From Eledone cirrhosa (Eukaryota): 64,000 nucleotides of DNA. The notes below the pieces were generated by a model. That model did no database searches, was not told the origin of the DNA, and saw only the letters and a program-made list of their open reading frames with translations. Position numbers and translations under genes: made by a program. Shown here piece by piece: positions 3,001-64,000 of this stretch. Location: positions 91,636,001 to 91,700,000 of the forward strand of contig OZ024747.1 in assembly GCA_964016885.1 (NCBI GenBank). The letters are read 5' to 3'. The first letter of the stretch is position 1; every line of letters starts with the position of its first letter.

Positions 3001-6000
3001 TAAGTATGTCTCTCTGTATGTATGTCTCTCTGTATGTAAGTATGTCTCTCTGTATGTAAGTAGGTCCCTCTGTATGTAAGTACGTCTCTCTGTATGTAAG
3101 TATGTCTCTCTGTATGTAAGTATGTCTCTCTGTATGTATGTATGTCTCTCTGTATGTAAGTATGTCTCTCTGTATGTAAGTATGTCTCTCTGTATGTATG
3201 TCTCTCTGTAAGTATGTCTCTCTGTATGTAAGTATGTCTCTATGTAAGTATGTCTCTCTGTATGTAAGTATGTCTCTCTGTATGTAAGTATGTCTCTCTG
3301 TATGTAAGTATGTCTCTCTGTATGTAAGTATGTTTCTCTGTAAGTACGTCTCTCTGTATGTAAGTATGTCTCTCTGTAAATATGTCTCTCTGTACGTAAG
3401 TATGTCTCTCTGTAAGTATGTCTCTCTGTATGTATGTATGTCTCTCTGTATGTATGTCTCTCTGTGTGTAAGTATGTCTCTCTGTGAGTATGTCTCTCTG
3501 TATGTAAGTATGTCATTCTGCATGTATGTCTCTCTGTATGTAAGTATGTCTCTCTGTATGTATGTATGTCTCTCTGTAAGTATGTCTCTCTGTATGTATA
3601 TATGTCTCTCTGTATGTATGTATGTCTCTCTGTATGTAAGTATGTCTCTTTGTATGTCTCTCTGTATGTAAGTATGTCTCTCTGTATGTATGTCTCTCTG
3701 TATGTAAGTATGTCTCTCTGTATGTATGTCTCTCTGTATGTAAGTATGTCTCTCTGTATGTAAGTATGTCTCTCTGTGTGTAAGTATGTCTCTCTGTATG
3801 TATGTATGTCTCTCTGTATGTAAGTATGTCTCTCTGTATGTAAGTATGTCTCTCTGTATGTATGTCTCTCTGTATATATGTATGTCTCTCTGTATGTAAT
3901 TATGTCTCTCTGAATGTATGTATGTCTCTCTGTATGTAAGTATGTCTCTGTGTATGTAAGTATGTCTCTCTGTATGTAAGTATGTCTCTCTGTATGTATG
4001 TATGTCTCTCTGTATGTAAGTATGTCTCTCTGTATGTATGTATGTCTCTCTGTATGTAAGTAAGTCTCTCTGTAAGTATGTATGTCTCTCTGTATGTAAG
4101 TATGTCTCTCTGTATGTATGTATGTCTCTCTGTATGTAAGTCTCTCTGTAAGTATGTCTCTCTGTATGTATGTCTCTCTGTATGTAAGTATGTCTCTCTG
4201 TATGTATGTCTCTCTTTATGTATGTCTCTCTGTCAGTACGTCTCTCAGTATGTAAGTATGTCTCTCTGTATGTAAGTATGTCTCTCTGTAAGTATGTCTC
4301 TCTGTATGTAAGTATGTCTCTCTGTAAGTATGTCTCTCTGTATGTAAGTATGTCTCTCTGTATGTATGTCTCTCTGTATGTAAGTATGTCTCTCTGTAAG
4401 TATGTCTCTCTGTATGTAGTATGTCTCTCTGTATGTATGTCTCTCTGTCTGTAAGTATGTCTCTCTGTAAGTATGTATGTCTCTCTGTATATAAGTATGT
4501 CTCTCTGTATGTAAGTATGTCTCTCTGTATGTAAGTATGTCTCTCTGTATGTAAGTATGTCTCTCTGTATGGAAGTATGTCTCTCTGTATGTATGTATGT
4601 CTCTCTCTGTGTAAGTATGTCTCTCTCTGTATGTAAGTATGTCTCTCTGTATGTAAGTATGTCTCTCTGTAAGTATGTCTCTCTGTATGTAAGTCTCTCT
4701 GTATGTAAGTATATCTCTCTGTATATATGTCTCTCTGTATGTAAGTATGTCTCTCTGTATGTAAGTATGTCTCTCTGTATGTATGTATGTCTCTCTGTAT
4801 GTATGTCTCTCTGTATGTAAGAATGTCTCTCTGTATATAAGTAGGTCTCTCTGTATGTCTCTCTGTAAGTATGTCTCTCTGTATGTATGTATGTCTCTAT
4901 GTATGTAAGTATGTCTCTCTGTATGTAAGTATGTCTCTCTGTATGTAAGTATGTCTCTCTGTATGTAAGTATGTCTCTCTGTAAGTATGTCTCTCTGTAT
5001 GTAAGTGTGTCTCTCTGTATGTAAGTTTGTCTCTCTGTATCTATGTATGTCTCTCTGTGTGTAAGTATGTCTCTCTGTATGTAAGTATGTCTCTCTGTAT
5101 GTAAGTATGTCTCTCTGTATGTAAGTATGTCTCTCTGTATGTAAGTATGTCTCTCTCTGTCTGTAAGTATGTCTCTCTGTATGTAAGTATGTCTCTCTGT
5201 ATGTAAGTATGTCTCTATGTATGCATGTCTCTCTGTATGTGAGTATGTCTCTCTGTATGTATGTCTCTCTGTATGTATGTCTCTTTGTATGTAAGAATGT
5301 CTCTCTGTATATAAGTAGGTCTCTCTGTATGTCTCTCTGTAAGTATGTCTCTCTGTATGTAAGTATGTCTCTCTGTATGTAAGTATGTCTCTCTGTATGT
5401 AAGTACGTCTCTCTGTATGTAAGTATGTCTCTCTGTATGTAAGTATGTCTCTCTGTATGTATGTATGTCTCTCTGTATGTATGTCTCTCTGTATGTAAGA
5501 ATGTCTATTTGTATATAAGTAGGTCTCTCTGTATGTCTCTCTGTATGTCTCTCTGTAAGTATGTCTCTCTGTATGTATGTATGTAATTATGTCTCTCTGT
5601 ATGTAAGTATGTCTCTCTGTATGTAAGTATGTCTCTCTGTATGTAAGTATGTCTCTCTGTATGTAAGTACGTCTCTCTGTATGTAAGTATGTCTCTCTGT
5701 ATGTAAGTATGTCTCTCTGTATGTATGTCTCTCTGTATGTAAGTATGTCTCTCTGTATGTAAGTATGTCTCTCTGTATGTATGTCTCTCTGTATGTAAGT
5801 ACGTCTCTCTGTATGTAAGTATGTCTCTGTATGTAAGTATGTCTCTCTGTATGTAAGTATGTCTCTCTGTATGTAAGTATGTCTCTCTGTAAGTATGTAT
5901 GTCTCTCTGTATGTAAGTATGTCTCTCTGTATGTAAGTATGTCTCTCTGTATGTAAGTACGTCTCTCTGTATGTAACTATGTCTCTCTGTATGTATGTCT

Positions 6001-7165
6001 CTTTGTATGTAAGTACGTCTCTCTGTATGTAAGTATGTCTCTCTGTATGTAAGTATGTCTCTCTGTATGTAAGTATGTCTCTCTGTATGTAAGTATGTCT
6101 CTCTGTATGTATGTCTCTCTGTATGTAAGTATGTCTCTCTGTATGTAAGTATGTCTCTCTGTAAGTATGTCTCTCTGTATGTAAGTATGTCTCTCTGTAT
6201 GTAAGTATGTCTCTCTGTATGTATGTCTCTCTGTATGTAAGTATGTCTCTCTGTATGTATGTATGTCTCTCTGTATGTAAGTATGTCTCTCTGTATGTAA
6301 GTATGTCTCTCTGTATGTAAGTATGTCTCTCTGTATGTATGTATGTATGTATGTCTCTCTGTATGTAAGTATGTCTCTCTGTATGTAAGTATGTCTCTCT
6401 GTATGTAAGTATGTCTCTCTGTATGTAAGTATGTCTCTCTGTAAGTATGTCTCTCTGTATGTAAGTACGTCTCTCTGTATGTAAGTATGTCTCTCTGTAT
6501 GTAAGTATGTCTCTCTGTATGTAAGTATGTCTATCTGTATGTATGTATGTCTCTCTGTATGTAAGTATGTCTCTCTGTATGTATGTATGTCTCTCTGTAT
6601 GTATGTCTCTCTGTATGTATGTCTCTCTGTATGTAAGTATATCTCTCTGTATGTAAGTATGTCTCTCCGTATGTAACTATGTCTCTCTGTATGTAAGTAT
6701 GTCTCTCTGTATGTATGTATGTCTCTCTGTATGTAAGTATGTCTCTCTGTAAGTATGTATGTCTCTCTGTATGTAAGTATGTCTCTCTGTATGTAAGTAT
6801 GTCTCTCTGTATGTAAGTATGTCTCTCTGTAAGTATGTCTCTCTGTATGTAAGTATATCTCTCTGTATGTAAGTATGTCTCTCTGTAAGTATGTCTCTCT
6901 GTATGTATGTCTCTCTGTAAGTATGTATGTCTCTCTGTATGTAAGTATGTCTCTCTGTATGTAAGTATGTCTCTCTCTGTATGTAAGTACGTCTCTCTGT
7001 ATGTAAGTATGTCTCTCTGTATTTAAGTATGTCTCTTTGTATAAAAGTAGGTCTCTCTGTATGTAAGTATGTCTCTCTGTATGTATGTCTCTCTGTAAGT
7101 ATGTCTCTCTGTAAGTAAGTAGGTCTCTCTGTATGTATGTCTCTCTGTCTGTAACTATGTATGCA
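1..7165. repeat. Satellite array, basic unit TATGTCTCTCTGTATGTAAG (20 bp) mixed with 16-bp and other variants; runs off the left edge
   Basis: Directly visible tandem repetition; diagnostic variants recur at 408-bp and 1616-bp offsets. Confidence 0.97.
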
Positions 7166-9387: not shown

Positions 9388-10690
9388 AGCGTCATCACCA
9401 TCACCATCACCAGCATCACCATCACCATCACCAGCATCACCATCACCATCACCAGCATCACCAGCATCACCATCACCAGCATCACCATCACCATCACCAG
9501 CATCACCATCATCATTATCAATATCATCACCATCATCACTACCAGCAGCATCACCATCATCATCAACACCATCATCACCATCACCACCAGCAGCGTCATC
9601 ACCATCACCATCATCATCACCATCAACACAATCATCACCATCACCACCAGCAGTGTCATCACCATGACCACCACCAGCGTCATCACCATCACCACCACCA
9701 CCACCACCACCAGCATCACCATCACCATCAACACAATCATCACCATCACCACCAGCAGCGTCATCACCATCACCACCACCAGCGTCATCACCACCACCAC
9801 CACCACCATCACCAGCATCATCATCACCATCAACACAATCATCACCATCACCACCACCAGAATCATCATCACCATCATCATCATCATCATCAGAATCATC
9901 ACCATCACCACCAACAGCGCCATCACCATCATCATTATCATCACCATCACCACCACCACCACCAGCATCACCATCACCATCAACACCATCATCACCATCA
10001 CCACCACCACCACCACAATCACCATCATCATCAACACCATCATCACCATCACCACCACCACCACCACCACCACCACCACCATCACCATCACCATCACCAT
10101 CATCATCAACACCATCATCACCACCACCACCAGCAGCGTCATCACCATCACCATCATCAATATCATCACAATCATCACTACCATCATCACCATCATTATC
10201 ATCACCATCATCACTACCAGCAGCATCATCAGCATCAACGTCGTCACCAGCGTCAACATCAGCAACATCACCAATACCATCATCATCATTATTATCATCA
10301 TTAGCATTAGCTTCATCATCATTTTTCATCATCACCACCATCGTCATCACCACCATCGTCGTTATCAATGTTAGCTTCACCATCATCACCATCACCATCA
10401 CCATCACCATCACCATCATCATCATCATCATCAACACCATCGTCGTTATCAATGTTAGCTTCACCATCATCACCATCACCACCATCATCATCATCATCAT
10501 TATCATCAACATCGTCATCGTCATTAACATCATCATCATCATCATCATCACCATCATCGTCTTCACCATCATCGTCATTGCCATCATCGTCATCACCATC
10601 ATCGTCATCGTCATCATTATCATCACCATCATCATCACCACCATCATCATCGTCATCATCACCATCATCGTCATCGTCATCATCATCATC
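9388..10690. repeat. Degenerate (CAT/CAC/CAG)n trinucleotide array
   Basis: Visible triplet periodicity; small internal duplication at 10354 and 10438. Confidence 0.93.
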
Positions 10691-12403: not shown

Positions 12404-12465
<62 letters not shown>

Positions 12466-12470
<5 letters not shown>

Positions 12471-12777
12471 TATGTATACGCACATACATATATGTATGCA
12501 GACGTATAGTAGTATGTATATACATACATACATGCACACATATATATATGTACGTATGGGTTTACCGAACATTTATTATAATGTTCAGTTTGTTTACAAA
12601 CAAACCGAACATTATAATAAATGTTCGGTAAACCCATACGTACATATATATATGTGTGCATGTATGTATGTATATACATACTACTGTACGTCTGTATACA
12701 TATATGTACGTACATATACATATTTATATTTAAGTATCAGCCGTACTAAGAGTGAGAAATGAAATTTAATTTTTTCC

Positions 12778-12780
<3 letters not shown>
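12466..12780 (+). mobile_element. (TA)n-flanked fold-back element: ~130-bp inverted arms centred on 12596-12597 plus ~50-bp unique tail
   Basis: Arms are near reverse complements; homologous pieces at 56976-57096 and 62095-62277; strand inferred from tail position. Confidence 0.75.
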
Positions 12781-12832
<52 letters not shown>

Positions 12833-12847
12833 CATACATAATGTCAC

Positions 12848-12945
12848 ATGGATATATCAATTTCACAGTTAAAGGACTAACATGTGTATATATATATATA
12901 TGTGTGTGTGTGTTAGTCCTTTAACTGTGAAATTGATGTATCCAT
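12848..12945. repeat. Small inverted repeat (35-bp arms) around a TA/TG spacer
   Basis: ATGGATATATCAATTTCACAGTTAAAGGACTAACA ... TGTTAGTCCTTTAACTGTGAAATTGATGTATCCAT. Confidence 0.85.
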
Positions 12946-12956
12946 ATACATATATG

Positions 12957-13050
<94 letters not shown>

Positions 13051-13604: not shown

Positions 13605-13609
<5 letters not shown>

Positions 13610-13775
13610 AACCAGTAAGACCCCGACAGCCGAGTTCAAGCCGTTTCGACGGCTGAAACGGCTTGAGCTCGGCTGTCGGGGTCTTACTGGTTCCTATTAC
13701 CCACTCTACTACCTCAAGTATTGAGTACTTTGGTGCGTTATCGTCCACCTGGTTCCTTACCACATTTCTTTCGTT
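13605..13775 (+). mobile_element. Fold-back Penelope-like 3' fragment carrying the 3' half of a hammerhead ribozyme (family H1)
   Basis: Palindrome 13605-13697; GAAA-CGGCT-tgagctc-GGCTG-TC at 13655-13677; tail shared with 33034-33125 and 51508-51701; (TA)n on both sides. Confidence 0.75.
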
Positions 13776-19285: not shown

Positions 19286-19667
19286 TAATAATAATATATC
19301 TATATGCACACACACACACACACACACATACACACATACATATACATATAAATACACGCACGCTCATGCACACACTTATATTGCATATATAATATGTGAG
19401 ATAACAAAGTTACATTTTACAATCTTTTTATTCCATATCGAGCGTTACACATATTTCGCAGACTATTAGCTCGGGGGCTTAATCGATATGATTGATTTGA
19501 TTTCACTATCGATCTGCTCATCAGATATACACGATAAATTACATCTATATATAACCATATTTTATTCACCTCGGTACGAAACATTAAACAAGTTGAAACA
19601 AATGTAAAGAAAATTCTTTATTCCTTCACTGTCCTGTTATAATTTCTCTGTTCTATTTCTTTCTGAA

Positions 19668-25228: not shown

Positions 25229-25459
25229 GCACATGCATACATATGTGTATGTGAAAGACAGATGTCTGAGGGAGAGTGTATGACAATAGGATTTGCAGCT
25301 GCAATTCTTATTGTTATTCTATATATACACTCCGCAAACTGCAGCCGACATAAAATTGGAGCACAACTCAACGAGAGATGGACCCCGTATCAGAATCGAG
25401 TACTTCAACCACCATCGCAACTAGTAACCAGAATTTACTCACATAATAATAATAATAAT

Positions 25460-26255
25460 AATTGTTACTACGTTAAGCACAAGGCCAGCAATTACCAGTG
25501 CATTACTGATACTTTATTTTATCGACCCCGTAAGGATGAAAGGCAAAGTTAACCTCGGCGGGATTTGAACTCAGAATGGCAAGGGCCGTAACTCTATGCG
25601 CCAAAGCATGGCATCCGACACTCTACCAATACTGCCAATCCACCGCCTTACCAATAATAATAATATTACTACGTTAGGCACAAGGCCAGCAATTACCAGT
25701 GTATTACTGGTACTTTATTTTATCGACCCCGTAAGGATGAAAGGCAAAGTTAACCTCGGCGGGATTTGAACTCAGAATGGCAAGGGCCGTAACTCTATGC
25801 GCCAAAGCATGGCATCCGACACTCTACCAATACTGCCAATCCACCGCCTTACCAATAATAATAATATTACTACGTTAGGCACAAGGCCAGCAATTACCAG
25901 TGTATTACTGGTACTTTATTTTATCGACCCCGTAAGGATGAAAGGCAAAGTTAACCTCGGCGGGATTTGAACTCAGAATGGCAAGGGCCGTAACTCTATG
26001 CGCCAAAGCATGGCATCCTACACTCTACCAATACTGCCAATCCACCGCCTTACCAATAATAATAATATTACTACGTTAGGCACAAGGCCAGCAATTACCA
26101 GTGTATTACTGGTACTTTATTTTATCGACCCCGTAAGGATGAAAGGCAAAGTTAACCTCGGCGGGATTTGAACTCAGAATGGCAAGGGCCGTAACTCTAT
26201 GCGCCAAAGCATGGCATCCGACACTCTACCAATACTGCCAATCCACCGCCTTACC

Positions 26256-26303
<48 letters not shown>

Positions 26304-26483
26304 TTTCTACTATTGGCACAAGGCCAGCAATTACCCTAGTACATTACTGGTACATTATTTTATCGACCCCGTAAGGATGAAAGGCAAAGTGAACCTCGGC
26401 GGGATTTGAACTCACACCATAAAGGGGCGTAACTCTATGCTGCAAAGCATGGCGTCCGACCTTCTACTGATACTGCCAATCCA
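25460..26483 (-). repeat. Tandem array of SINE family A: four near-identical 201-bp units plus a fifth divergent copy
   Basis: CGTTA(A/G)GCACAAGGCC at 25471, 25672, 25873, 26074; fifth copy from ~26300. Confidence 0.95.
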
Positions 26484-30562: not shown

Positions 30563-30700
30563 TGATCCTGTTAGTGATTACTACACGAAAGTCGTGGTTT
30601 TGCTTTTTATAAAGTTTAAAATCTTCTAGAAGAGACACCATTCAAAGAACAAACGGTGCATCTAATGCAAACCCTATCTGCATATATATATATATGTATA

Positions 30701-31534
30701 TACTATAGAGTAAAGCATGTCCAGAGAATTATTTGATAATATATATACATCATCTCTACTCCCAATCAGCATAATTAACCACACAAAAAAGTTACAAAAA
30801 CACATATATACCTGTGACTTTGTTTAATTGGTGCATGTGTAAATATTTATATTTAATAATCTCCCATAAGGGTGAGATAAAAATTTGGGCGATATTGGGC
30901 TGCGCTTTCTAGCAACTAACCCACTCGCCGTAAGCAACCAATCACACCCTTCCTGACTTGACCACTGCCACGTCACAGTTCTCAACCATTTTGAATTCGG
31001 CGGGGAAGGGAGCTGGGCACTTCAGAAAATAATATGTCCTAGTGAGTTTATCCCCTGATGAGCTCTAAACTCGAGTATAAACCTTAAATAAGGTATCTCA
31101 AAAGTGAGCGAAACCAAAGGGTCGGGATTTAGTGATTTAATCCTGGTATGTATATAACATTAATTTTTACCTAATTATGTATGGTTGACCGTATATTTAA
31201 TTAATTTCCACGTGCTAATGAAATGTTGGGTAAATATTCTATAGCGGTTGCACGCGAAGACGCCACGATAGCGTATTTATTTACTGTTTCTTTATAGATG
31301 CCTTTTATTCTTATAGCCTGGTCTAATTGATTTTTTGTGTGGTTAATTATGCTGATTGGGAGTAGAGATGATGTATATATATTATCAAATAATTCTCTGG
31401 GCATACTTTACTCTATAGTATTTCGCTCTGATTAATTTATTAATTCTTCATTGAGCCACATCGTGAAAAGTTGCAAAAACACATATATACCTGTGACTTT
31501 ATTTAATTGGTGTATGTGTAAATATTTATATTTA
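30701..31534 (+). mobile_element. HHR-bearing non-coding retroelement: 90-bp 5' inversion, 679-bp unit and 65-bp terminal direct repeat, ending in (TA)n
   Basis: 30701-30790 is the inverse of 31331-31420; 30791-30855 repeats at 31470-31534. Confidence 0.8.
31050..31128 (+). ncRNA. Canonical type I hammerhead ribozyme
   Basis: Stem I ATCCC/GGGAT, CTGATGA, stem II GCTC/GAGC with extended loop hairpin ACCTTA-aa-TAAGGT, GAAA, stem III CC-aaag-GG, GTC cleavage site (after 31123). Confidence 0.88.
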
Positions 31535-31591
<57 letters not shown>

Positions 31592-33033
31592 GTAAAAAAG
31601 AAAAAAAAACAGTAGAAAATGCTAAAGGGATTTTCTCTCAGAATAACATCAAAACATTTATTTACAAAATAGGAATATATATATATAGGTGTGTATTTGT
31701 GTGTGTATGTGTGTGTTTTACAAAGGGTTATCCTTTATACTTCGGAGAAATATACTTTGTATCCCCAATAAAGGAGTTCAAATGTTTTGTGATTCACTAT
31801 GAGTGCATTGACATATGTTTGTATGTTTCCATATCCATCTACAAACATTTATCTACACATTAAAAAACATACACAGAATAACCTATATAATGTTTGCCAC
31901 TGCCATTGTGATCCTAAAGCTGTAAATATTGATTCACTTAAATCTTATTTTATATCATCTAGAGTCTTCGCTTCCCTCCTCCACCTTACCATCATCTTGT
32001 TATTCTCTAAGTATTTCAACTCCTTTTCACTCAGTCATAATATCATTTTACTATATCACTGTAGGCTGCACCTGTCCCCTTCTCTCAGTTTATTTCTTTA
32101 TTTCTCACGTAAAGTCGTTCTCTCTTAATTTCTTTCATAATTTGCCTGATTTCCCGCCTTCTCACCTCGCTTCATTACTAAGAGCCTGCTATTACCTTAC
32201 TAAGAGCCTGCTTTTCCCTTCACCGCCTTATTTGATTTATTAGCCACTTATACATTATTCACTCATAAATATATACACACATCCGCATGCACACAATCAC
32301 ACACAGGTTACATATAATATACCTATTTATATATTTATATGTATACATATATATTCATATATATATTTATATGTATGTATATATGTATTTATCTCTCTGC
32401 CCCACCTTCTCCTTCTCTCTCTATGTATATATATAATATAATTAGAGAGAGACATACATACAGACAGACAAGCAGGCAGACAGAGAGAGGGTGGAGAATT
32501 ACTATATTTATAGTAAGACAGTTTACGCTTGTTTCTTTTTCCAGAATCTAGACTTTCCTTGACAACTGTAATCACAGCTGCTATCATAACTTATTATATA
32601 TATTCTTCTTTACTATTTACTGCTATAAGTTACCATTGCTTTAAATATGAGAAAATTGCCCCAGTGTACTGATAACATTAAGTGTCTGCACGTAACTTTA
32701 TGATGTTGTTTTTTCTCTTCCAATAAACTATGGATTAAGAATAAAATGTGCAGTCGCATTTGTATTGTTGAAGAGGTAAACACACATAGTATTAAATAAC
32801 TATCATGAAATCCCGGTCATATTTTCCTCATAATATTCAAGATTATTTGATATTATTAAGTATTTCTATCGTGACATTTACACATTGGATAATAACATAT
32901 TGTTGAGATATCTTTATTATTATCGGTTACACATTCAATGTTGTTTCGGATTTCTCAATGGATATCAACTGTATTTTCTTCTTTCCCAATACAAATAAGT
33001 TATCAATGGATAGATATAGGGTTGTATTTCTAA

Positions 33034-33123
33034 TTACTTGTTCCTATTACCCACTCTACTACTCTAAGTATTGAGTACTTTGGTGCGTTATGGTCCACCT
33101 GGTTCCTTACCACATTTCCTTCG

Positions 33124-33125
<2 letters not shown>
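33034..33125 (+). mobile_element. 3' tail of family H1 element
   Basis: TTCCTATTACCCACTCTACT...TTGAGTACTTTGGTGCGTTA...TTCGTT-(TA)n, as at 13691 and 51617. Confidence 0.8.
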
Positions 33126-33216
<91 letters not shown>

Positions 33217-33341
33217 GAAATACAACCCTATATCTATCCATTGATAACTTATTTGTATTGGGAAAGAAGAAAATATATGTCCCAAGGCTCTGATACCATC
33301 AACACAATAAACACAGAGCTGGCATATCTAAGAACTGCCTA

Positions 33342-33399
33342 ACTGCCTGATGAGCTCATAGCCATTCAATGGCTATCATCGAAATATATATATAGCAGT
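33342..33399 (+). ncRNA. Type I hammerhead ribozyme, copy 1
   Basis: Stem I ACTGC/GCAGT, CTGATGA, G...C closing an ATAGCCATT-c-AATGGCTAT hairpin, GAAA, palindromic TATATATA stem III, ATA cleavage site. Confidence 0.8.
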
Positions 33400-33446
33400 A
33401 AATAAAGGATTATGAGTTCATGCAATTGACTTATGTCTCGTCATCG

Positions 33447-33510
<64 letters not shown>

Positions 33511-33635
33511 GAAATACAACCCTATATCTATCCATTGATAACTTATTTGTATTGGGAAAGAAGAAAATATATGTCCCAAGGCTCTGATACCATCAACACA
33601 ATAAACACAGAGCTGGCATATCTAAGAACTGCCTA

Positions 33636-33693
33636 ACTGCCTGATGAGCTCATAGCCATTCAATGGCTATCATCGAAATATATATATAGCAGT
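33636..33693 (+). ncRNA. Type I hammerhead ribozyme, copy 2
   Basis: Same sequence as 33342-33399. Confidence 0.8.
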
Positions 33694-33740
33694 AAATAAA
33701 GGATTATGAGTTCATGCAATTGACTTATGTCTCGTCATCG

Positions 33741-34150
<410 letters not shown>

Positions 34151-35786: not shown

Positions 35787-38780
35787 CAAGGGTTCTCAAC
35801 CTGGTCCATGTGGACCACCAGTGGTCCACAGGAAAATTCAGGGGGTACACAGAAAATTTTCTGTGGACCACCTGAAAAATTAAAATTCTTCCGTACACGC
35901 ACACGTGACACAAACGAAACATGCCTCATCACACCTCGCACCTGTGAGTGCGCTTGAGAGCACGCCTTTCCTATTGCACGATTAGCTATCCAATCATACA
36001 CGGACGCGTACCAGACAAGTACAGACGCGTACAGACGTTAGCACGCATAAAAACACACAACAAATCGCCTGTTCTCGGCCAGTCGACACGATCGTATTTT
36101 CTACCTGACTTTTGAATTGAGGATTACTGGTGAAACAGCAGTTCTTACGGCTTGCCCAACATAACATATTATCTCTCCAGGTACGTACATTTTTACGCAA
36201 GTGTTAGTCAATTGTAGTCTGTAGAAATTTTGTTGTCAGTGATATGGAAAAACGTTCCCTAAATTCTTCGTTCACCGAATCGGAAAAACGATTTTGTAGA
36301 CGATATAACTCAGATTATATCAGATATGTTTTTTTTATCCAGCGCAGAGGATCCACAGTGTATCATCTGCTCAAAAATATTAACTAACGACTCAATGAAA
36401 CTTTCGAAATTATTGTATCATCAAAACCAAGTCCATCCCGATTTATATGGCAAGCCTAAGAAGTACTTCGAAGAATATCTTCGCAAAAAAAAAGCGTCAT
36501 CTGCATCACTGAAAACTTTCCTATCCCATGTTTACAACAGTTCTGGTCTGCAAGCGTCCTACAACATTTCGCTCATGATAGCAAAACAGGGTCGCCCACA
36601 TACCATTGGTGAAGACCTGATTAGGCCCTCAATACTTGAAGGATATAAAGTTGCTAATGTGTCGAACGCTGCCTCAGTTTTAGCAACTATTCCACTTTCC
36701 AACAGCACGGTATCTTCCCGCATTTCTGAAATGGCTGAAGATGTCAAATGTACAGTTGTAGAAGAATTGCGACACTGCAGATTTTCGTTGACGGTGGATG
36801 ACAGCACTTTTGACAACCAATGTGTTGTGCTTGCTTTTGCTCGCTATGTAAAAGGGACCACGGTTTGTGAAAACCTACTTTTTATGACAACTGTACTGAA
36901 AAACACTGGAGAGATGATCTACAATGCAGTCATAGATTTTCTCACTAAAAATGACATTGATCCGCACAACATCACATCAATATGCACTGATGGAGAAGCC
37001 TCTATGGTTGGAAAATCCCAGGGTTTTGTTGCAAGATGGAGAGAATTTAATCACATCTTCACAACTCATTGCGTACTCCATCGAGAACATCGGAAGTGAT
37101 ACCTTTTCTGAAATCCTTAACACAATTGTTTCCGCAGTCAACAAGATCAAAAGATCTGGTCTTCGGGACAGGCTTTTCCAAGAAGCTTGTAAAGATGAAA
37201 CGTTCAACCGTCTGTTGTATTCGACAGATATACGCTGGCTATCAATGGGAGGCTGCCTTGGACGTTTTATTGCACTCTTCGATAAAGTCATAGAATTTCT
37301 TCAACAGACTGATCCAATTATGACAGCATCACTTTCTGAGAAAAAACCCGCAATTTTGTACTTACATGAGATCTTTCAAAAACTAAATGAATTTAACCTT
37401 TCTTTGCAAAAGCAGAACATCAACGTTGTACGTGCCAAACACGTCATAAGCTCGTTCTATGAAAATTTCAAATTGAAGATCATAACTTTTCGCAGTTCGA
37501 GAGCTTAAAAACTGTTGTGGTAGATAATGACTTGCACAAATCTATAATCGAGCATCTATCTTTCCTTCACAAAAACTTCAATAATCATTTTGAAGATCTT
37601 TTGGCTTTAAATATCCCAATTTTTGTGGATTCTCTTCACACAATGTCTATGAACGACATACTTGTTCAACTAGAATGTCTTCAGATGGAGCTCTGTGAGG
37701 CGACGGTAGATGATAATCTGCGTAAATTTTCTGAAACTAACTGGGTCGAGGCTTGGTTGAATCATTGTCAAGAATATCCAAAGCTGTTTGAACAAGTCGA
37801 GCCTTTCATAATAAATCTCCCTACATCTTACTTGGCTGAAAAGGGATTTTCCATTGTCCTCCACACATACACAAAGCAGCGGAGGCGGTTGATCCTCGAC
37901 AACAATGCCGATTTGAGACTTCGCTTGAGCCACATAGAGCCGAGGATTTCTAAACCTGTGGATCAAAAACAAGCACAAGGGTCTCATTGACAGTTTTTTG
38001 ACGTGTTGTCTGATGACGTAGCGTAATTGTGTTGTTGACATTTTTAATTCAACTAAATTTGTTGTATTCCCTCAAACGTTTACACAACCTTTTGTACTGA
38101 TCCCAACTTAAATCTTCTCATTTTTGTAACTTACCCTACACATTATCATATTTAAACTGAACAGCTTTCCATTTCATCTGAATGATAGGGAGTGTTTTCC
38201 AGGACTCGGTAACCTTTTTCTACACGATTCTATCAAATAAAGCTTTATTGAAAAAAATAGACATTTTCAAATTGGTTTTCTTATTGGTGTTCTCATTTGT
38301 TTGTTCTCTGTCGTCTTGGTGCTTAAAACATGTCCCTTAGGGGAACAAAAAAGGAACTTTCATTGCAAAGTGAAAATGGTATTGACCAATCAAATCGATC
38401 TTACCAATTAAAAGTAGAAACTTATTCTCAACATCAATGCTTCATATTTTTTCGCTGAGATATGAAATCGAAAAAATTCAAATTAATAACGAATAAGTTA
38501 CGCGTTGCTTGATGCAATGGCAAATTCCTTTTTGATCCATGCATTTGACTTAAAGCGCTGTTCTTATTCTTCGCATAAGTACGATTTCAGCTGTTTATAT
38601 GCATAGATATTTAGGCACTGCGACATGATAATAGCATTTTCTAATTCATTGAAAATAAAAACATCTACTGATGCTTATAAGTAGCAGTTATATTACAAAA
38701 GATTTTAAAGTTTAGGTGGTCCACAGGAAAAAATTACTTACTTTGGTAGCCTACAGCGAAAAAAAGGTTGAGAACCCCTG
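35787..38780 (+). mobile_element. Full-length hAT DNA transposon (Buster/Charlie type), 2994 bp
   Basis: 16-bp TIRs CAAGGGTTCTCAACCT / AGGTTGAGAACCCCTG (1 mismatch); perfect 8-bp TSD CTGTAAAC at 35779-35786 and 38781-38788 with central TA. Confidence 0.95.
36244..37990 (+). pseudogene. hAT Buster/Charlie-like transposase, disrupted by three frame changes (~36330, ~37090, ~37500)
   Basis: BED finger (CIICSKIL...HQNQVH), DDST, CTDG, HCVLHRE, RWLS, TSYLAEKGFS and C-terminal QAQGSH. Confidence 0.92.
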
Positions 38781-39450: not shown

Positions 39451-39529
39451 TTTCCAAACAATAAAGTATGAATCAGTCTAAGGATAGAGCTTCATCAGTA
39501 GAACAGTCATCGCATGGCTATATGCTTAA

Positions 39530-39702
39530 TAATTGTTTCTACTTTTGGCACAAGGCCAGCAATTACCCAGTGCATTACTGGTACTTTATTTTATCGACCC
39601 CGTAAGGACGAATGGCAAAGTTAACTTCGGCGGGATTTGAACTCAGAATAGCAAGGAACGTAACTCTATGCGTCAAAGTATGGTGTCGGGCCCTCTACCG
39701 AT
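39530..39702 (-). mobile_element. SINE family A copy
   Basis: Homology to other copies. Confidence 0.88.
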
Positions 39703-39748
39703 ATATGTTTAATAATGATCAGGGAAGAACATTATTGAAATAGATTTA

Positions 39749-39935
39749 GAGGGCGGTGGATTGGCAGTATCGGTAGAGGGTCGGACGCCATGCTTTCCAG
39801 CATAGTTACGTCTCTTTACGATCTGAGTTCAAATCCCGCCAAAGTTGACTTTGCCTTTCATCCTTACGGGGTCGATAAAATAAAGTACCAGTAATACACT
39901 GGGTAATTGCTGGCCTTGTGCCTAGAGTAGAAACA
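39749..39935 (+). mobile_element. SINE family A copy with 18-bp TSD ATTATTGAAATAGATTTA
   Basis: Direct repeat at 39731-39748 and 39936-39953. Confidence 0.92.
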
Positions 39936-40106
39936 ATTATTGAAATAGATTTAAATTGGTGGAAAGAGAAACACAGTGGTATCCAGTGGGTCAAGATGAG
40001 GAATATCAAAGACAACTCGAAGATCCAAGTATCTTTACGTAGAATGTTGGCAAGCACCTAATAATAAATTAGATTGTTTTACTACATTGTCCGCCATTAT
40101 GTAGAC

Positions 40107-44531: not shown

Positions 44532-44735
44532 AGATATGTAAAATCAGGACCGCGGCACCAAGCGGTTTCGGGTTGCAAATCCTACTGAAAACACTGTTCA
44601 AACCGCTTGGCAGCGCGCGTCAGAATTTTACATATCTCTATACCCACTCTGTATCTCCACATGCATTGAGTACTCCCATGACAAGTGGTCTCCCCGGTCT
44701 CAGCACCACAGACTCCCGATTTCTCTCTTCCTGTA
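44532..44735 (+). mobile_element. Fold-back element with half-hammerhead and H1-like tail
   Basis: Imperfect inverted arms 44532-44570 and 44599-44637; minus strand of left arm reads C-GAAA-CCGC-ttggtgcc-GCGG-TC; tail TACCCACTCT...TTGAGTACT before (TA)n. Confidence 0.6.
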
Positions 44736-51507: not shown

Positions 51508-51701
51508 ATAGGAACGATTAGGACCCCGACGGCTGAGCTCAAGCCGTTTCGACGGCTAATTCAGTCCAGAATTAGCCGTCGAAACGGCTTGAGCTCAGCC
51601 GTCGGGGTCCTACTCGTTCCTATTACCCACTCTATTACCCTAAGTATTGAGTACTTTGGTGCGTTATGGTACATCTGGTTCCTTACCACATTTCGTTCGT
51701 T
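51508..51701 (+). mobile_element. Family H1 fold-back element with 3' half of hammerhead
   Basis: Palindrome 51508-51623; GAATTAGCCGTC-GAAA-CGGCT-tgagctc-AGCCG-TC (51569-51603). Confidence 0.8.
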
Positions 51702-51822
51702 ATATATATATATATATATATATAATGGTAGAACACTGGAAGGTAATATCCGTAGTGTTAGAGCACTCAGTCAATGGGACGAGTTAGGTAGAAGTGGTAA
51801 CTCAACAGTTAGTTCACCATAC

Positions 51823-51860
51823 CGATATCAATTGTTTCACCTTAGCGGATCTTCAGCTCG
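51823..51860 (-). ncRNA. Minimal type I hammerhead (core intact, cleavage site mutated)
   Basis: CGAG-CTGAAGA-tCCgctaaGGt-GAAA-CAATTG-AT-ATCG. Confidence 0.65.
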
Positions 51861-52177
51861 TAATGGACATGGTTATACGGAACAGGAAGGACAAACGTAT
51901 GAACTCGCATGCGCAGAAACGATCACTTCACACAGGCAATACTAAATTGCGTGCGAGATGTGTAAGGGAGATAACTACGAAAGTCCGAAAGTTTCTAGTT
52001 GATAAAAAAATCAGGATGTTGTTGTAATTCAATCCGGAGCTTTGTAGTTATGAAAGAGGTGTTTCGAGAAAAATTCATTTCTCGAGTTTAGGCAATCACT
52101 ATTGCGTAATCACTTTAGAATATTTATTCGTTCATCAATACATAGTCCACACGACGGATTGCCTCTTGCGTATGGCT

Positions 52178-52396
52178 TGGAAAGCCATCACTAAGTCCAA
52201 GCCATACGCAAGGGGCAATCCGTCGTGTGGACTATGTATTGATGAACGAATAAATATTCTAAAGAGATTACGCAATAGTGCTTGCCTAAACTCGAGAAAT
52301 GAATTCTTCACACGTTGTCCAGACGTCTCGAAACATCTCTTACATAACTACAAGCTCCGGATTGAATTACAACATCCTAATTTTCTTTTCAACTAG
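52178..52396 (+). pseudogene. C-terminus of a Penelope-like GIY-YIG endonuclease
   Basis: WKAITKSKPYARGNPSCGLCIDERINILKRLRNSACLNSRNEFFTRCPDVSKHLL matches the W...pY...C.LC..E...I...LN.R.E...C...K.LL PLE pattern. Confidence 0.82.
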
Positions 52397-52521
52397 AAAC
52401 TTTCGGACTTTCGTATTTACACCTCTCGCACGCAATTTAGTATTGCCTGTGTGAAGTGATCGTTTCTGTGTATGCGCGTTCGTACGGTTGTCCTTCCTGT
52501 TCCGTATAACCATTTCCATTA

Positions 52522-52559
52522 CGAGCTTAGGATCCGTTAAGGTGAAACAATTGTTCTCG
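52522..52559 (+). ncRNA. Minimal type I hammerhead (core mutated, cleavage site intact)
   Basis: CGAG-CTTAGGA-tCCgttaaGGt-GAAA-CAATTG-TT-CTCG. Confidence 0.6.
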
Positions 52560-52806
52560 GTATGGTGAACTAACGGTTGTGTAACAACTTATATATATAT
52601 ATATAGTTGAAAACGAAAGAACAAAAGACAGGAGGCAATTAATTGTACAGTAATATTAGTTTCGCACTTGGTAGAAGTGAAGGATATATATATATATATA
52701 TATATATATAGTAATAATAAATACAAAGACAGAAGAAGGGTATATATATAAACCTAATATATACCTTCCATATACTGTACCGATTGTGTTGTTATTTCTG
52801 TTTACC

Positions 52807-52951: not shown

Positions 52952-53002
52952 GGCTTCTACGGGACTAGAACTGTTTCATTGGGGAGAAATCATCAGGAAG
53001 CC
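52952..53002 (-). ncRNA. Type I hammerhead ribozyme in a ~75-bp inter-microsatellite insert
   Basis: Stem I GGCTTC/GAAGCC, CTGATGA, weak stem II tTTctccccAAt, GAAA-C...G-TA. Confidence 0.68.
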
Positions 53003-53012
53003 GACTGTCCAA

Positions 53013-53045
<33 letters not shown>

Positions 53046-53075
53046 ATCAAAAGATGGTTAAAGGAGTTCCATGTA

Positions 53076-53142
53076 TTTTATTATGCGCATTTCAAAAACA
53101 AACATCATCATGCAATAATATTTGTGTTTTCATCAGATAAAA
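53076..53142 (-). ncRNA. Type I hammerhead ribozyme, left arm
   Basis: TTTTAT-CTGATGA-AU-rich stem II-GAAA-TGCGCA-TA-ATAAAA. Confidence 0.78.
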
Positions 53143-54156
53143 CAGGAGGACATGATATGAAGGCTAAAAAACACTTGTGGATAGTGCAGTTTTAAATCAA
53201 CATATGAAAAGTAGTTTTAGATTGATGTGTGATATTGGGAAAAATATTTTATTTAGAGAGGGGGGGGGGGTGGAAAGGATGAAAAAAGGGGAGGAGATGA
53301 GAGTGAAGGTGGAGAGGGAGAGATGGGTGATAGAGAGAAAGAGATAGTTTTTATAACTGAGAGAAGATATATTGTTTTACATAGAGAGGTTGAAAACCGT
53401 TGGAAGATAATGTATAAATTAAAAGAATTTGAAAATTAACGAAGGGAAAAATATGTACGAGGAAAAAATATTTTATTTAGAGAGGGGGGGGGGATGAAAA
53501 AATGGGAGGAGATGAGAGTGAAGGTGGAGAGGGAGAGATGGGTGATAGAGAGAAAGAGATAGTTTTTATAACTGAGAAAACATATATTGTTTTACATAGA
53601 GAGGTTGAAAACCGTTGGAAGATAATGTATAAATTAAAATTATAAATTTAATTTATACATTATCTTCCAACGGTTTTCAACCTCTCTATGTAAAACAATA
53701 TATCTTTTCTCAGTTATAAAAACTATCTCTTTCTCTCTATCACCCATCTCTCCCTCTCCACCTTCACTCTCATCTCCTCCCCTTTTTTCATCCTTTCCAC
53801 CCCCCCCCCCCCCTCTCTAAATAAAATATTTTTTCCTCGTACATATTTTTCCCTTCGTTAATTTTCAAATTCTTTTAATTTATACATTATCTTCCAACGG
53901 TTTTCAACCTCTCTATGTAAAACAATATATCTTCTCTCAGTTATAAAAACTATCTCTTTCTCTCTATCACCCATCTCTCCCTCTCCACCTTCACTCTCAT
54001 CTCCTCCCCTTTTTTCATCCTTTCCACCCCCCCCCCTCCTCTCTAAATAAAATATTTTTCCCAATATCACACATCAATCTAAAACTACTTTTCATATGTT
54101 GATTTAAAACTGCACTATCCACAAGTGTTTTTTAGCCTTCATATCATGTCCTCCTG

Positions 54157-54221
54157 TTTTATCTGATGAAAACAAATATTATTGCATGATGATGTTTGTT
54201 TTTGAAATGCGCATAATAAAA
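54157..54221 (+). ncRNA. Type I hammerhead ribozyme, right arm (2-nt deletion in stem II)
   Basis: TTTTAT-CTGATGA...GAAA-TGCGCA-TA-ATAAAA. Confidence 0.72.
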
Positions 54222-54349
54222 TACATGGAACTCCTTTAACCATCTTTTGATCTTATATATTATGTATACTCCAGTCCTACAAAATGTAGAGTGCTTCTTA
54301 TCCGATATCTGCATTGCTTTATTGTACTACGATAAAACTCACCTCCTAC

Positions 54350-54398
<49 letters not shown>

Positions 54399-60618: not shown

Positions 60619-62094
60619 AGTATGCATCGTCAAGTATCTAAGAAGCTCGTTTAACCTGGTTCCGAGTAAGATCCCACTCCGCGGCACTTTGACCAAGTGT
60701 CGTAAGCCATAGCTTATTCTTGAGGAATAGATGTTATCTTTCATGAGATAAAACATCACATCGCTATGTAAAGTTGGCATTATATGTTTATGTATAACAG
60801 ATAACAAAATATTTCCATCATTGTATAACTTCTGTCTGTAAAATATAATAAAAACATTCTTACAGACATTGGACCAAGTCAGGGGATATTTCGATGACTT
60901 GATATGCTGCTGCTTTTTTTTTTTCAGTAACCCATGGTTTGTGATTTCTTCTTCCATTCTTCCACAAGCCTGTGAAACTCTTAGCATATTTTTTAAGCAC
61001 TGCATTTCCTCACTGACTAGCCACCGGAAAAAGAAGTAAAATAGGTTGAGAAAAATCAAGGAAATAAGATTCTTTAAGAGAATTTTCATAATAGAGAAAA
61101 ATTATTCGATTGTTGTTAGCCTTTGCCATATTGTCTGATTTCACTCATAACCTCACTGGGAAAATAACTTTGACTATATAGTGTAACAATAAAAAATTAA
61201 TTGACGAAATAGCAAAATAGATGAATATATATTAGTTCGAAAGGAAAACACACTAATATACGTTGAAATAAAAATAGCATATACGTAGAGTATTCCTATT
61301 TCATAATTCCGAAACGTTGCATCTTATAAATACTGCCAAAAGTGTATGCATCGGTATTCAGAAATATAAAGGTGAACTATAGTTTATACATAAAAGGATA
61401 CCACAAGACAATGTGCTTGTAATAACAGCGATTATTTTACAAAACAGACGTATTTATACACTAAATACAAAATGACTTATAAAATTACTTATAGTTCAAA
61501 CTCTCACACTTATACACACATTTATATTCGTATGAGTTTGTATGTTAAAGACATAATTACATACATGAATACATTTCTGACATTTTGACCATCTGTATAT
61601 TATGTACATATATTCGTTTTGTAAAAGTTACTAATGACAGGACAGATTGAAACGGTCGATGCCCCTATCTTGAAAATCGGCAGTTTAATGTATGCATATA
61701 TTAAACTTCCGATTTTCATGATCTGCTCCAAATACTTGCAGGATATATATATATATATCCTGCAAAAAACAAGATGGCGTAGTACAGAACAAAGGAGAGG
61801 CACAAAAACAAAGAAAAGAATCCTCAGTCACTGAAGAGGTCACATAATGTGTGACGAAAGAATTTTGACAATATATAAACAATCATCTGGTTGTGGAACC
61901 AACCAACCAACCGGAAATTTATAAATTCCTAACTTTATAAATTTATTATAATAAATTGAAGTGAAAGCATCTGGTGCGTGTGTTTCTTATTGGCAACATG
62001 ACCCTCCCAAAGTATAACAATATCGGTTTCAACACACGTTTTCAGATAAAGAATCTTGCTAAACAAATTCAGAAACGAAATATATATATATATA

Positions 62095-62277
62095 AACGGA
62101 AAAAATGAAACGAAATTTCATTTCTCACTCTTACAAACACACCGAGCATTATAATAAATGTTCTGTGAATCCATACGTACATATATATATATGTGTGCAT
62201 GTATGTATATACATATACATACTACTGTACGTCTGTATACATATATGTATGTACGTATACATACTTATATATATATA
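62095..62277. mobile_element. Internally inverted copy of the 12466-12780 family
   Basis: 62095-62133 is the inverted 3' tail; 62134-62270 is colinear with 12596-12727. Confidence 0.75.
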
Positions 62278-62346
62278 TCCTGCAAGTATGTGGAGCAGAC
62301 CTCCGAATGCCAAACCTCGCAAACTCTTTCTCCTGCATATATTAAA

Positions 62347-62388
<42 letters not shown>

Positions 62389-62392
<4 letters not shown>

Positions 62393-62858
62393 AACTCTGG
62401 ATGTCGGTGAGCATGTCCAGCCAACCTCAGTCTCCTCTGTGTCACTTTTGAGCTGACTTTTGGGATGCTCCCATACAGCTCCGACTTTTTCATCCTCAGT
62501 GTATACTGATTAATGTTCAGAGCCATCCTCAGCATTCTCGTGTAGCACCCATCCACGATCTGAGTGAGTCTCTTGGTCAGTGTCCAAGTCTCTGACCCAT
62601 ACAGCAGCACAGACTCCACTACAGCAATGAAGAGGCGGATTTTCAGGTCTCTACGACATCCAGAGTTGACATTGCACTCAGTGCTCCTTTGGGAGCCCCT
62701 ACATGGACACACTAGAAGAGGAAGACCAAGGTTAACATATGTTGATGCCCTAAGGACAGACACTGGTCTGTTGGAGATGCAGGATATGGCAGCGATAATG
62801 AGGGACAGAGACCGCTGGAGAGAACTCGTCCATGGATCTCGGGAATTTTACCCGCCTT

Positions 62859-62860: not shown

Positions 62861-62903
<43 letters not shown>

Positions 62904-63136
62904 TTAGAAACACACAGATACATGCGGACACACACATATATACATGAATGCATCCGCACCCAACTGTGAGTTAAGGGTGCCAACTTCACCGATGTTGCTC
63001 AATGAATGACTGGGACAGACCAATTCAGTTGAACTAGACTGAACCAGTATCAGAGTTAAAAATACATTATGAAGAGAGAAGAAACATTTAGATATAATTA
63101 GTAATAAAATGTATCATACCTAAACTGCTCCTAAAT

Positions 63137-63226
63137 TCCTCGACTACGTAGTTTCGTGGCATAAACAAAAACAATATATCATAAAGACATAGAGTCCTTG
63201 CGAGGTCTGCCGACTTATCAAGAGGA
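63137..63226 (-). ncRNA. Type I hammerhead ribozyme with U3-A8 core variant, copy 1
   Basis: TCCTC-TTGATAA-GTcGGCA...TGCCAC-GAAA-CTACGTAG-TC-GAGGA. Confidence 0.78.
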
Positions 63227-63731
63227 TACCTCATTTTACTAGTCTCAAGAACGCGTCTACACGACGTGCGAAAGAGTCCCAAAAGGCGGAGGGGGAGATA
63301 GTCACGCGATATAACGGTCGAGAAACAGAGCTAAGCCTCTTATAACCCCGAAGAAAATACCACGGAGGCGGAGGGGGTATTTATATCGAGGCCGCAGAAG
63401 AGGTGGTGAAGAAGGCGAGAAGTATGAGTAATGGAAGCTTTCCAGCTGTCCCCACACTTCAAAGATTGCTCGACCAGAGGGAGTTATTAACAATATATTT
63501 AGAAACACACAGATACATGCGGACACACACATATATACATGAATGCATCCGCACCCAACTGTGAGTTAAGGGTGCCAACTTCACCGATGTTGCTCAATGA
63601 ATGACTGGGACAGACCAATTCAGTTGAACTAGACTGAACCAGTATCAGAGTTAAAAATACATTATGAAGAGAGAAGAAACATTTAGATATAATTAGTAAT
63701 AAAATGTATCATACCTAAACTGCTCCTAAAT

Positions 63732-63821
63732 TCCTCGACTACGTAGTTTCGTGGCATAAACAAAAACAATATATCATAAAGACATAGAGTCCTTGCGAGG
63801 TCTGCCGACTTATCAAGAGGA
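63732..63821 (-). ncRNA. Type I hammerhead ribozyme with U3-A8 core variant, copy 2
   Basis: Same as 63137-63226 at +595 bp. Confidence 0.78.
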
Positions 63822-64000
63822 TACCTCATTTTACTAGTCTCAAGAACGCGTCTACACGACGTGAGAAAGAATCCCAAAAGGCGGAGGGGGAGATAGTCAC
63901 GCGATATAACGGTCGAGAAACAGAGCTAAGCCTCTTATAACCCCGAAGAAAATACCACGGAGGCGGAGGGGGTATTTATATCGAGGCCGCAGAAGAGGTG

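Follow-up and report, generated by a model that had tools for sequence, protein, structure and literature searches.

The window analysed here is a 64-kb stretch of AT-rich, microsatellite-dense DNA of animal type (64,000 nucleotides). At positions 51725-52590 it contains a head-to-head duplication whose arms represent the 3'-terminal ~400 nt of a Penelope-like element (PLE), set between (TA)n repeats. The features of the locus are as follows.

51700..51724, no strand: left (TA)n flank, read from the sequence and common to the 3' end of a family A element (see below)
51725..51791, minus strand: one-sided tail of ~68 nt, spanning the interval from the short to the long 3' end, defined by arm lengths past the hammerhead cut and by two matching end classes in related loci
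51762..51784, minus strand: bulged hairpin in the tail, with a 4-bp outer stem, a 3-bp inner stem and a 1-nt bulge (2-nt in relatives), from a descriptor match and a model of foreign loci
51789..52181, minus strand: left arm, an inverted copy of the 3' end, interrupted by an in-frame stop and lacking 18 nt across the CxH motif (arm alignment)
51823..51860, minus strand: left minimal type I hammerhead, first core intact, U16.1 altered and one pair of stem I disrupted
52178..52199, plus strand: junction, a 4-nt microhomology (52178-52181/52196-52199) flanking a 14-nt loop (arm alignment; conserved Trp)
52178..52365, plus strand: C-terminal ~60 residues of a GIY-YIG endonuclease, very probably of the Hydra clade, with CxxC, E, N and CxH (His replaced by Asp), from protein search, alignment, profile and the published text of Fig. 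S7 (PMC8557442)
52196..52590, plus strand: right arm, the end of the ORF and the 3' UTR as far as the short 3' end (arm alignment, end mapping)
52522..52559, plus strand: right minimal type I hammerhead with U.U at the base of stem II, a palindromic stem III and one core change, G5 to U
52590..52606, no strand: right (TA)n flank (sequence)

The two arms (51789-52181 and 52196-52593) are separated by the 14-nt loop, and each contains the endonuclease C-terminus, the 3' UTR and a minimal hammerhead. Their alignment comprises 354 matches, 26 mismatches and 5 gap runs, with an ungapped identity of 93.2%. Because the arms have diverged to this extent, the fold-back is real and old, and the preliminary description of it (51724..52590) stands. 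Assemblies are known to be troubled by inverted PLE structures (PMC8557442); nevertheless, the 26 substitutions and 5 gap runs make a sequencing or assembly artefact hardly credible here.

The loop is in frame with the coding sequence of the right arm. The arms meet at the complementary TGGA/TCCA, where the Trp is kept in 91 of 100 homologues. Of the five-base TTGGA/TCCAA complementarity proposed earlier, only these four bases can thus presumably be taken as native. Past the hammerhead cut the left arm extends for 102 nt and the right arm for 34 nt; the left side therefore carries ~68 nt more element sequence than the right, a one-sided tail (51725-51791) absent from the preliminary description. 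(TA)n abuts both ends of the element, at one insertion site, an argument weakened by the frequency of (TA)4+ runs, of which the 64-kb window has 203. The 18-nt loss in the left arm leaves a perfect 8-bp local inverted repeat at 52060-52090, as if produced by template-switch repair.

Elsewhere, the window holds a 7-kb satellite of 20-bp units (8-7153), a CAT/CAC trinucleotide array (9392-10690) and, at its end, a ~510-bp direct repeat with 99.6% identity (62897-64000). Further inverted structures include a TA-rich fold-back at 12405-12828 related to 62131-62389, another at 12778-13015, and one with long terminal inverted repeats at 30700-31534. Three overlapping frames of a broken gene occupy 36263-37990; the first of them reaches 0.97 against FAM200/ZBED5-like clusters of the Atlas, with no Pfam match, and we take the gene to be probably a dead hAT-type transposase. 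A 232-aa frame at 62149-62847 (minus strand), with no Pfam or PDB match, bears some resemblance to the C-terminal region of an RTE-type LINE ORF.

Endonuclease fragment, hammerheads and clade assignment

An exhaustive search with the peptide encoded at 52178-52365 matched 100 proteins at E ≤ 0.001 (best 2.1e-8), and the CxxC..E..N..CxH pattern is present in 80 of them. Throughout the alignment of these homologues the Cys pair of CxxC is invariant, Glu is conserved in 97, Asn and the last Cys in 99 each, and His in 96. The window peptide keeps CxxC, E, N and the last Cys; the right arm has Asp in place of His. This replacement, and the CxH deletion in the left arm, are read as signs of decay. 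The same peptide found nothing by word-index search, in Pfam or in the Atlas (best 0.78), nor did an alignment search limited to proteins longer than 1150 aa; a PDB search with homologue P0012 was likewise negative.

P0012 (658 aa) is 45% identical to the window peptide over 55 residues. Its relatives total 2110, and the clade counts given here use the 120 matches listed. Among these 120, the CxCx5C linker pattern is found in 118, a match to the window peptide in 113, DK[TS] in 77 and RW[KR] in 51, while the RT motif, the CxC linker and a matching C-terminus occur together in 99. The GIY-YIG domain of another homologue, P0101, exceeds the Pfam cut-off. These matches to full-length RT+GIY-YIG proteins, together with the clade signature, support the earlier recognition of a PLE endonuclease C-terminus. 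In a 704-position profile of 120 long relatives the window fragment covers positions 642-703, followed by the stop and the UTR. The same profile, applied to the whole window in six frames, detected the two arm fragments only and no RT or autonomous PLE copy.

The frame of the left arm stops at a TGA matching 52363-52365, 13 residues past the CxH position, and 13 residues is also the median distance from CxH to the stop among 86 homologues. For this reason, the native stop is probably at 52363-52365, ~156 nt before the hammerhead. The right arm, which probably lost a base, now reads on to a stop at 52394-52396; the distance of ~125 nt between stop and hammerhead reported earlier holds for this stop, not for the probable native one.

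The Hydra clade is marked by an RT with DKT and RWK, a CxCx5C linker, a GIY-YIG motif, the lack of a CCHH finger, and a C-terminal CxxC/CxH around E and N (PMC8557442). The linker and the GIY-YIG motif belong to the portion that truncation has removed from the element. Since the window is without an RT, the assignment of the element to this clade rests on ~60 residues and on RNA features, which make it very probable. Penelope/Poseidon, Neptune and Nematis are ruled out by their rows in Fig. S7 of PMC8557442, which are without the CxxC and CxH pair. Naiad, as described in the same source, has an N-terminal endonuclease and is without a canonical hammerhead, and does not fit. The published Hydra-1_Obim family shows ~40% amino-acid identity, and its UTR and hammerhead differ in a by-eye comparison (PMC8557442), so that it is a separate family. 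A non-LTR retrozyme was also considered and rejected, the element being head-to-head and coding rather than a series of head-to-tail non-coding repeats. The element is a dead, heavily 5'-truncated insertion of a Penelope-like retrotransposon, with the clade assigned at the strength given above, of a family other than Hydra-1_Obim.

The two hammerheads had been reported as minimal, with a U.U pair, and as damaged at different positions; both observations hold, the right copy having G5 changed to U and the left copy a changed U16.1 and a broken stem I pair. The U.U pair recurs in 14 of 25 Hydra families in File S2 of PMC8557442, and (TA)n insertion in 26 of 27 families in its tables, both counted by eye. 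In 2000 shuffles of the 3' UTR, a hammerhead with at most one deviation appeared once, and one that also had a palindromic stem III never appeared. The left hammerhead alone is not significant, as 24 window sites are found at up to 2 deviations. Our initial descriptors miss ribozymes with a long stem II, which a wider version catches; the latter finds 7 perfect sites in the window versus a mean of 0.05 in 20 shuffles. The Rfam matches listed (150 of 345 for one scan) include no hammerhead and consist of hairpin and microsatellite noise. The stem III segment is predicted in silico to self-pair at -9.6 (right) and -5.2 (left) kcal/mol, and predicted monomer folds do not yield the hammerhead structure.

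These features agree with those of described elements. Hydra-1_Obim, Hydra-2_Amil and Penelope-13_HM all combine a C-terminal CxxC/CxH endonuclease, a sense hammerhead in the 3' UTR and a (TA)n target, and Penelope-13_HM includes an inverted copy that is truncated at its 5' end, each strand carrying one hammerhead (PMC8557442); compared with the clade, 51725-52590 keeps only the last ~400 nt. The minimal PLE hammerheads of PMC4209133 likewise combine an additional base following the first core with a palindromic stem III that favours cleavage as a dimer, and they occur as opposite-strand pairs ~100-700 bp apart, compared with ~660 bp here; in contrast to them, stem II at 51725-52590 is only 2 bp and both copies are damaged.

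Scanning genome contigs for relatives yielded 14 loci (L001-L014), six of them from one record series. A hammerhead lies 3' of the ORF in 8 of the 14 related full-length loci, 5 of which terminate in (TA)4+; among the remaining six, three have the hammerhead cut off, internal or upstream, and three are without a 3' end. The association of PLE homologues with hammerheads and TA repeats in full-length copies, on which the preliminary description had staked its reading, is thus found. Head-to-head copies are present in L003, L004 and L005, two being short fold-backs resembling 51725-52590. We infer that L001-L014 are animal DNA caught in bacterial bins; P0144, P0194 and P0213, like these loci, are Hydra retrotransposons filed under bacterial-labelled records. 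In L005 (4882-7393), L009 (1210-2534) and L011 (365-7060), short hammerhead-bearing ends of several families are stacked in one (TA)n region, an arrangement that resembles the window.

The tail hairpin and the non-coding neighbours

The consensus of the tail hairpin in related loci has a 4-bp outer stem, a variable inner stem and a 2-nt 3' bulge, followed by RCT. It is present in 9 of the 14 related loci and in three non-coding families of the window, which are as follows.

51510..51700, plus strand: family A, a non-coding fold-back that contains a hammerhead 3' half and has a hairpin tail (model E 0.001-0.017); a further copy lies at 13605-13775 and a tail only at 33036-33125
53044..54351, plus strand: 1.2-kb non-coding fold-back with an intact hammerhead on each arm, one of them at 54159-54219, and a hairpin tail on the right; arms 99.5% alike (model E 1.8)
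44540..44735, plus strand: decayed fold-back with a hairpin tail, ending in (TA)n (model E 2.7)

A descriptor written after the window was seen matches 51762-51784, and only 1 of 2000 shuffles. Over the window it gives 8 matches at 6 sites versus a shuffled mean of 1.6, with one outer-stem variant at all six. A model was also built from 12 hairpins of 9 foreign loci, a training set chosen for having the hairpin, with hairpins and end pairs picked by eye and the duplicate L011 4744 hairpin excluded. In this set 96.3% of cells are paired, with 14 double changes; three of five covariation measures were reached in 0 of 500 shuffles, and the other two are not significant (65 and 126 of 500). Several stems have G.U replacing Watson-Crick pairs, which points to a hairpin acting as RNA. 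The foreign-only model ranks 51762-51784 first of 7 within the element (E 0.11); window-wide the top three places go to the family A copies (E 0.001-0.017), with the 1.2-kb fold-back in fourth place (E 1.8), a match at 44636 sixth (E 2.7) and the element tail tenth of 13 (E 7.5). It also recovers two second hairpins from outside the training set (L006, E 0.001; L010, E 0.012).

The position of the hairpin relative to the 3' ends is regular. Four foreign loci have two hairpins each, spaced by 63, 65, 65 and 68 nt, and the tail at 51725-51791 measures 68 nt. We infer a second hairpin for the 51725-52590 element, which is not itself seen in the sequence. Ends that reach (TA)n lie mostly 31-59 or 96-118 nt past the ribozyme cut, with one at 150. 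For 10 of the 13 3' ends selected by hand, a hairpin follows at a distance of 4-6 nt, the remaining three having distances of -1, 1 and 8; the long ends of L001 and L008 lie 4 nt before the second hairpin, and most scored 3' ends finish with TAT or TA. The hairpin in the tail may mark where copying starts.

By eye, a matching hairpin is visible in the published consensi of Hydra-2_Amil and Hydra-2_Ajap, and twice in that of Hydra-1_Ajap (PMC8557442). The words "hairpin" and "stem-loop" are absent from the main text of PMC8557442, and no description of the tail hairpin was found by searches of mainly open-access literature and by term searches of PMC8557442 and bioRxiv 10.64898/2026.07.22.740005, although supplements may show the hairpin. 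The tail of ~68 nt at 51725-51791 compares with 30-40 nt quoted for PLEs (PMC8557442); those of the non-coding families are longer, ~77-90 nt.

The 51725-52590 element has the tail hairpin and the end geometry in common with family A, the 1.2-kb fold-back and 44540-44735. It has no linear similarity to any neighbour in the window, the best outside match being E 0.013 over 25 nt. Homology of its tail to family A tails, suspected by eye, was rejected (p 0.17, 0.35 and 0.61); a match to the reverse complement of one family A tail (p 0.003) probably stems from the dyad in the hairpin. The link to the neighbours is therefore at the level of the clade, not of the family, and it is in this form that the role of driver of the non-coding elements, proposed earlier for the family of the fold-back, can be kept. 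Family A, the 1.2-kb fold-back and 44540-44735 are probably passengers of a Hydra-type protein. The 1.2-kb fold-back looks younger than the 51725-52590 relic.

The family A fold-backs at 51510-51623 and 13605-13697 share their turning point, which lies within stem II of the hammerhead; this reflects either mobilization of the whole palindrome or a site at which copying stalls. Two identical 294-bp units at 33213-33745, with hammerheads at 33343-33398 and 33637-33692, palindromic stem III and (TA)n ends, are either retrozyme-like or an assembly duplication; their first 65 nt also occur inverted at 32972-33036. A small hammerhead at 52954-53000 (minus strand), with a 6-bp stem I and the U.U pair, sits between (TA)n and (TG)n and has no hairpin tail. 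The perfect descriptor matches at 61827-61869 (plus strand; 7-bp stem II) and 19486-19528 (minus strand) have no (TA)n within 120 nt. The commonest repeat of the window, ~200 bp long with 20 blastn matches, has neither hammerhead nor hairpin; it is SINE-like, with a tandem array at 25451-26483, an inverted pair at 39528-39941 and no tRNA gene called.

The non-LTR retrozymes (PMC7229834; bioRxiv 10.64898/2026.07.22.740005) resemble these neighbours in being non-coding and carrying hammerheads, and their movement has been ascribed to PLEs. They form head-to-tail arrays, whereas the neighbours are mostly head-to-head with tails and 51725-52590 is a coding fragment.

Origin of the inverted structure

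The fold-back itself is of a known kind, because each of its features (truncated copies in inverse orientation, hammerheads, tails, insertion at (TA)n) has been published for the clade; inverted 5'-truncated copies with one-sided tails are described in PMC8557442 and PMC3846280. The side on which the tail lies is, in our opinion, informative as to how such copies arise. Under snap-back self-priming, in which a single target-primed cDNA stops in the ORF, folds onto 4 complementary bases 14 nt back and copies itself, the right arm would be the template and the left arm the copy, because the loop is in frame with the right arm. This predicts the observed microhomology and loop. However, a single self-primed cDNA fails to give the left tail, because the copied arm cannot exceed its template. 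At 51725-52590 and at L005 5723-6068 (7-nt microhomology, judged against L009) the loop-less arm holds the tail; at L005 5034-5250 and in L004 the tail is on the loop arm, as snap-back permits. The four fold-backs in which both loop side and tail side are known are thus evenly divided. The count does not include L003, which runs into a contig end, L005 1130-4975, where both ends are short, L011 28-6837, arranged tail to tail, or the rearranged L010, nor does it include family A and the 1.2-kb element, in which the loop has no assignable side, and 44540-44735, which is too decayed but leans to the loop-less arm. The microhomology scoring excludes three long-loop junctions. Moreover, the limit of the right arm coincides with the regular short end and is not a random deletion point, and the lowest-energy DNA fold predicted for the cDNA end is not the structure required, which is weak evidence. 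Self-priming of one cDNA, the origin given in the preliminary description, is therefore the weaker model, and we consider it unlikely: the arm taken as the copy exceeds its template by ~68 nt, and L005 5723-6068 likewise has the longer copy.

Two cDNAs primed from opposite target strands would account for a tail on either arm. We favor two-sided target priming with the cDNAs joined by microhomology, a reading which four cases make reasonably probable, over snap-back and over self-priming on antisense RNA. The protein of the element would cleave both strands of a (TA)n repeat, and synthesis would be primed from each of the two 3' ends. The first cDNA would begin just before the first tail hairpin, giving the short end and the right arm; the second would begin just before the second hairpin, ~65 nt further, giving the long end and the left arm. 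Both would halt early, at most 14 nt apart, their 3' ends would pair through the 4 complementary bases, and each paired cDNA would then template the second strand of the other. Cis-signals shared with nearby non-coding hammerhead elements would allow a Hydra-type protein to move these as well.

Twin priming of L1, in which two target-primed cDNAs are likewise joined by microhomology, is similar to the proposed scheme; it differs in that the second L1 primer starts inside the RNA and inverts the 5' part, whereas here both arms begin at the 3' end. The Poseidon PLE protein PAc of Anolis, which has an AT-rich target, cuts and extends both strands, and its two RT start sites bound the tail (PMC11167929). 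This agrees with two-sided priming of Hydra elements by analogy, the data being in vitro and from another clade, with a start site not homologous to the target. The PAc start is inside an AC-rich stem loop, while Hydra ends precede a bulged hairpin by 4-6 nt and mostly carry TAT, able to pair with (TA)n.

The published model for head-to-head PLE palindromes is self-priming on antisense RNA (PMC3846280), to which uneven cutting of the palindrome by the endonuclease, the explanation of tails in PMC8557442, would add a one-sided tail. The inverted pLTRs of Adineta Penelope resemble 51725-52590 in being head-to-head, with a palindromic junction and a tail on one arm; they belong to another clade, and the model requires an antisense template (PMC3846280). 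Uneven cutting could place the tail on either arm, and the hairpin stem, a near-dyad, might be recognized by the endonuclease as DNA. Arguments to the contrary are the G.U pairs in several hairpin stems, which point to RNA, and the in vitro correspondence of the tail to a pair of RT start sites on sense template (PMC11167929). We regard this origin as improbable, to about the same degree as snap-back.

A later origin, through host replication or repair after insertion or through two unrelated insertions meeting head to head, appears quite improbable. Other palindromes do exist in the window, and repair makes use of short microhomologies. However, the arms end at the element's own 3' ends with no host flank included, there is no (TA)n at the junction, and a matching layout recurs in foreign Hydra loci.

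Significance of the tail hairpin

Taken alone, the relic adds one further family to the described Hydra clade, and the tail hairpin matters more. The origin of tandem and inverted structures and the bias toward microsatellites were posed as open questions in PMC8557442, and second-strand synthesis was left unexplained in PMC11167929. Our tentative proposal, to which we give somewhat less than even credence, is that two tandem bulged RNA hairpins past the hammerhead each position one subunit of an RT-endonuclease dimer, so that cDNA begins 4-6 nt upstream of the hairpin, at a TAT paired with the cut (TA)n strand. The spacing of the hairpins would then set the length of the tail, two-sided priming with microhomology joining would yield both the inverted structure and the second strand, and the hairpin would be a cis-signal kept by non-coding hammerhead elements for their mobilization. 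Lying at a fixed distance from both 3' ends, the hairpin offers a concrete, mutable cis-signal and a criterion by which non-coding passengers of Hydra elements can be recognized.
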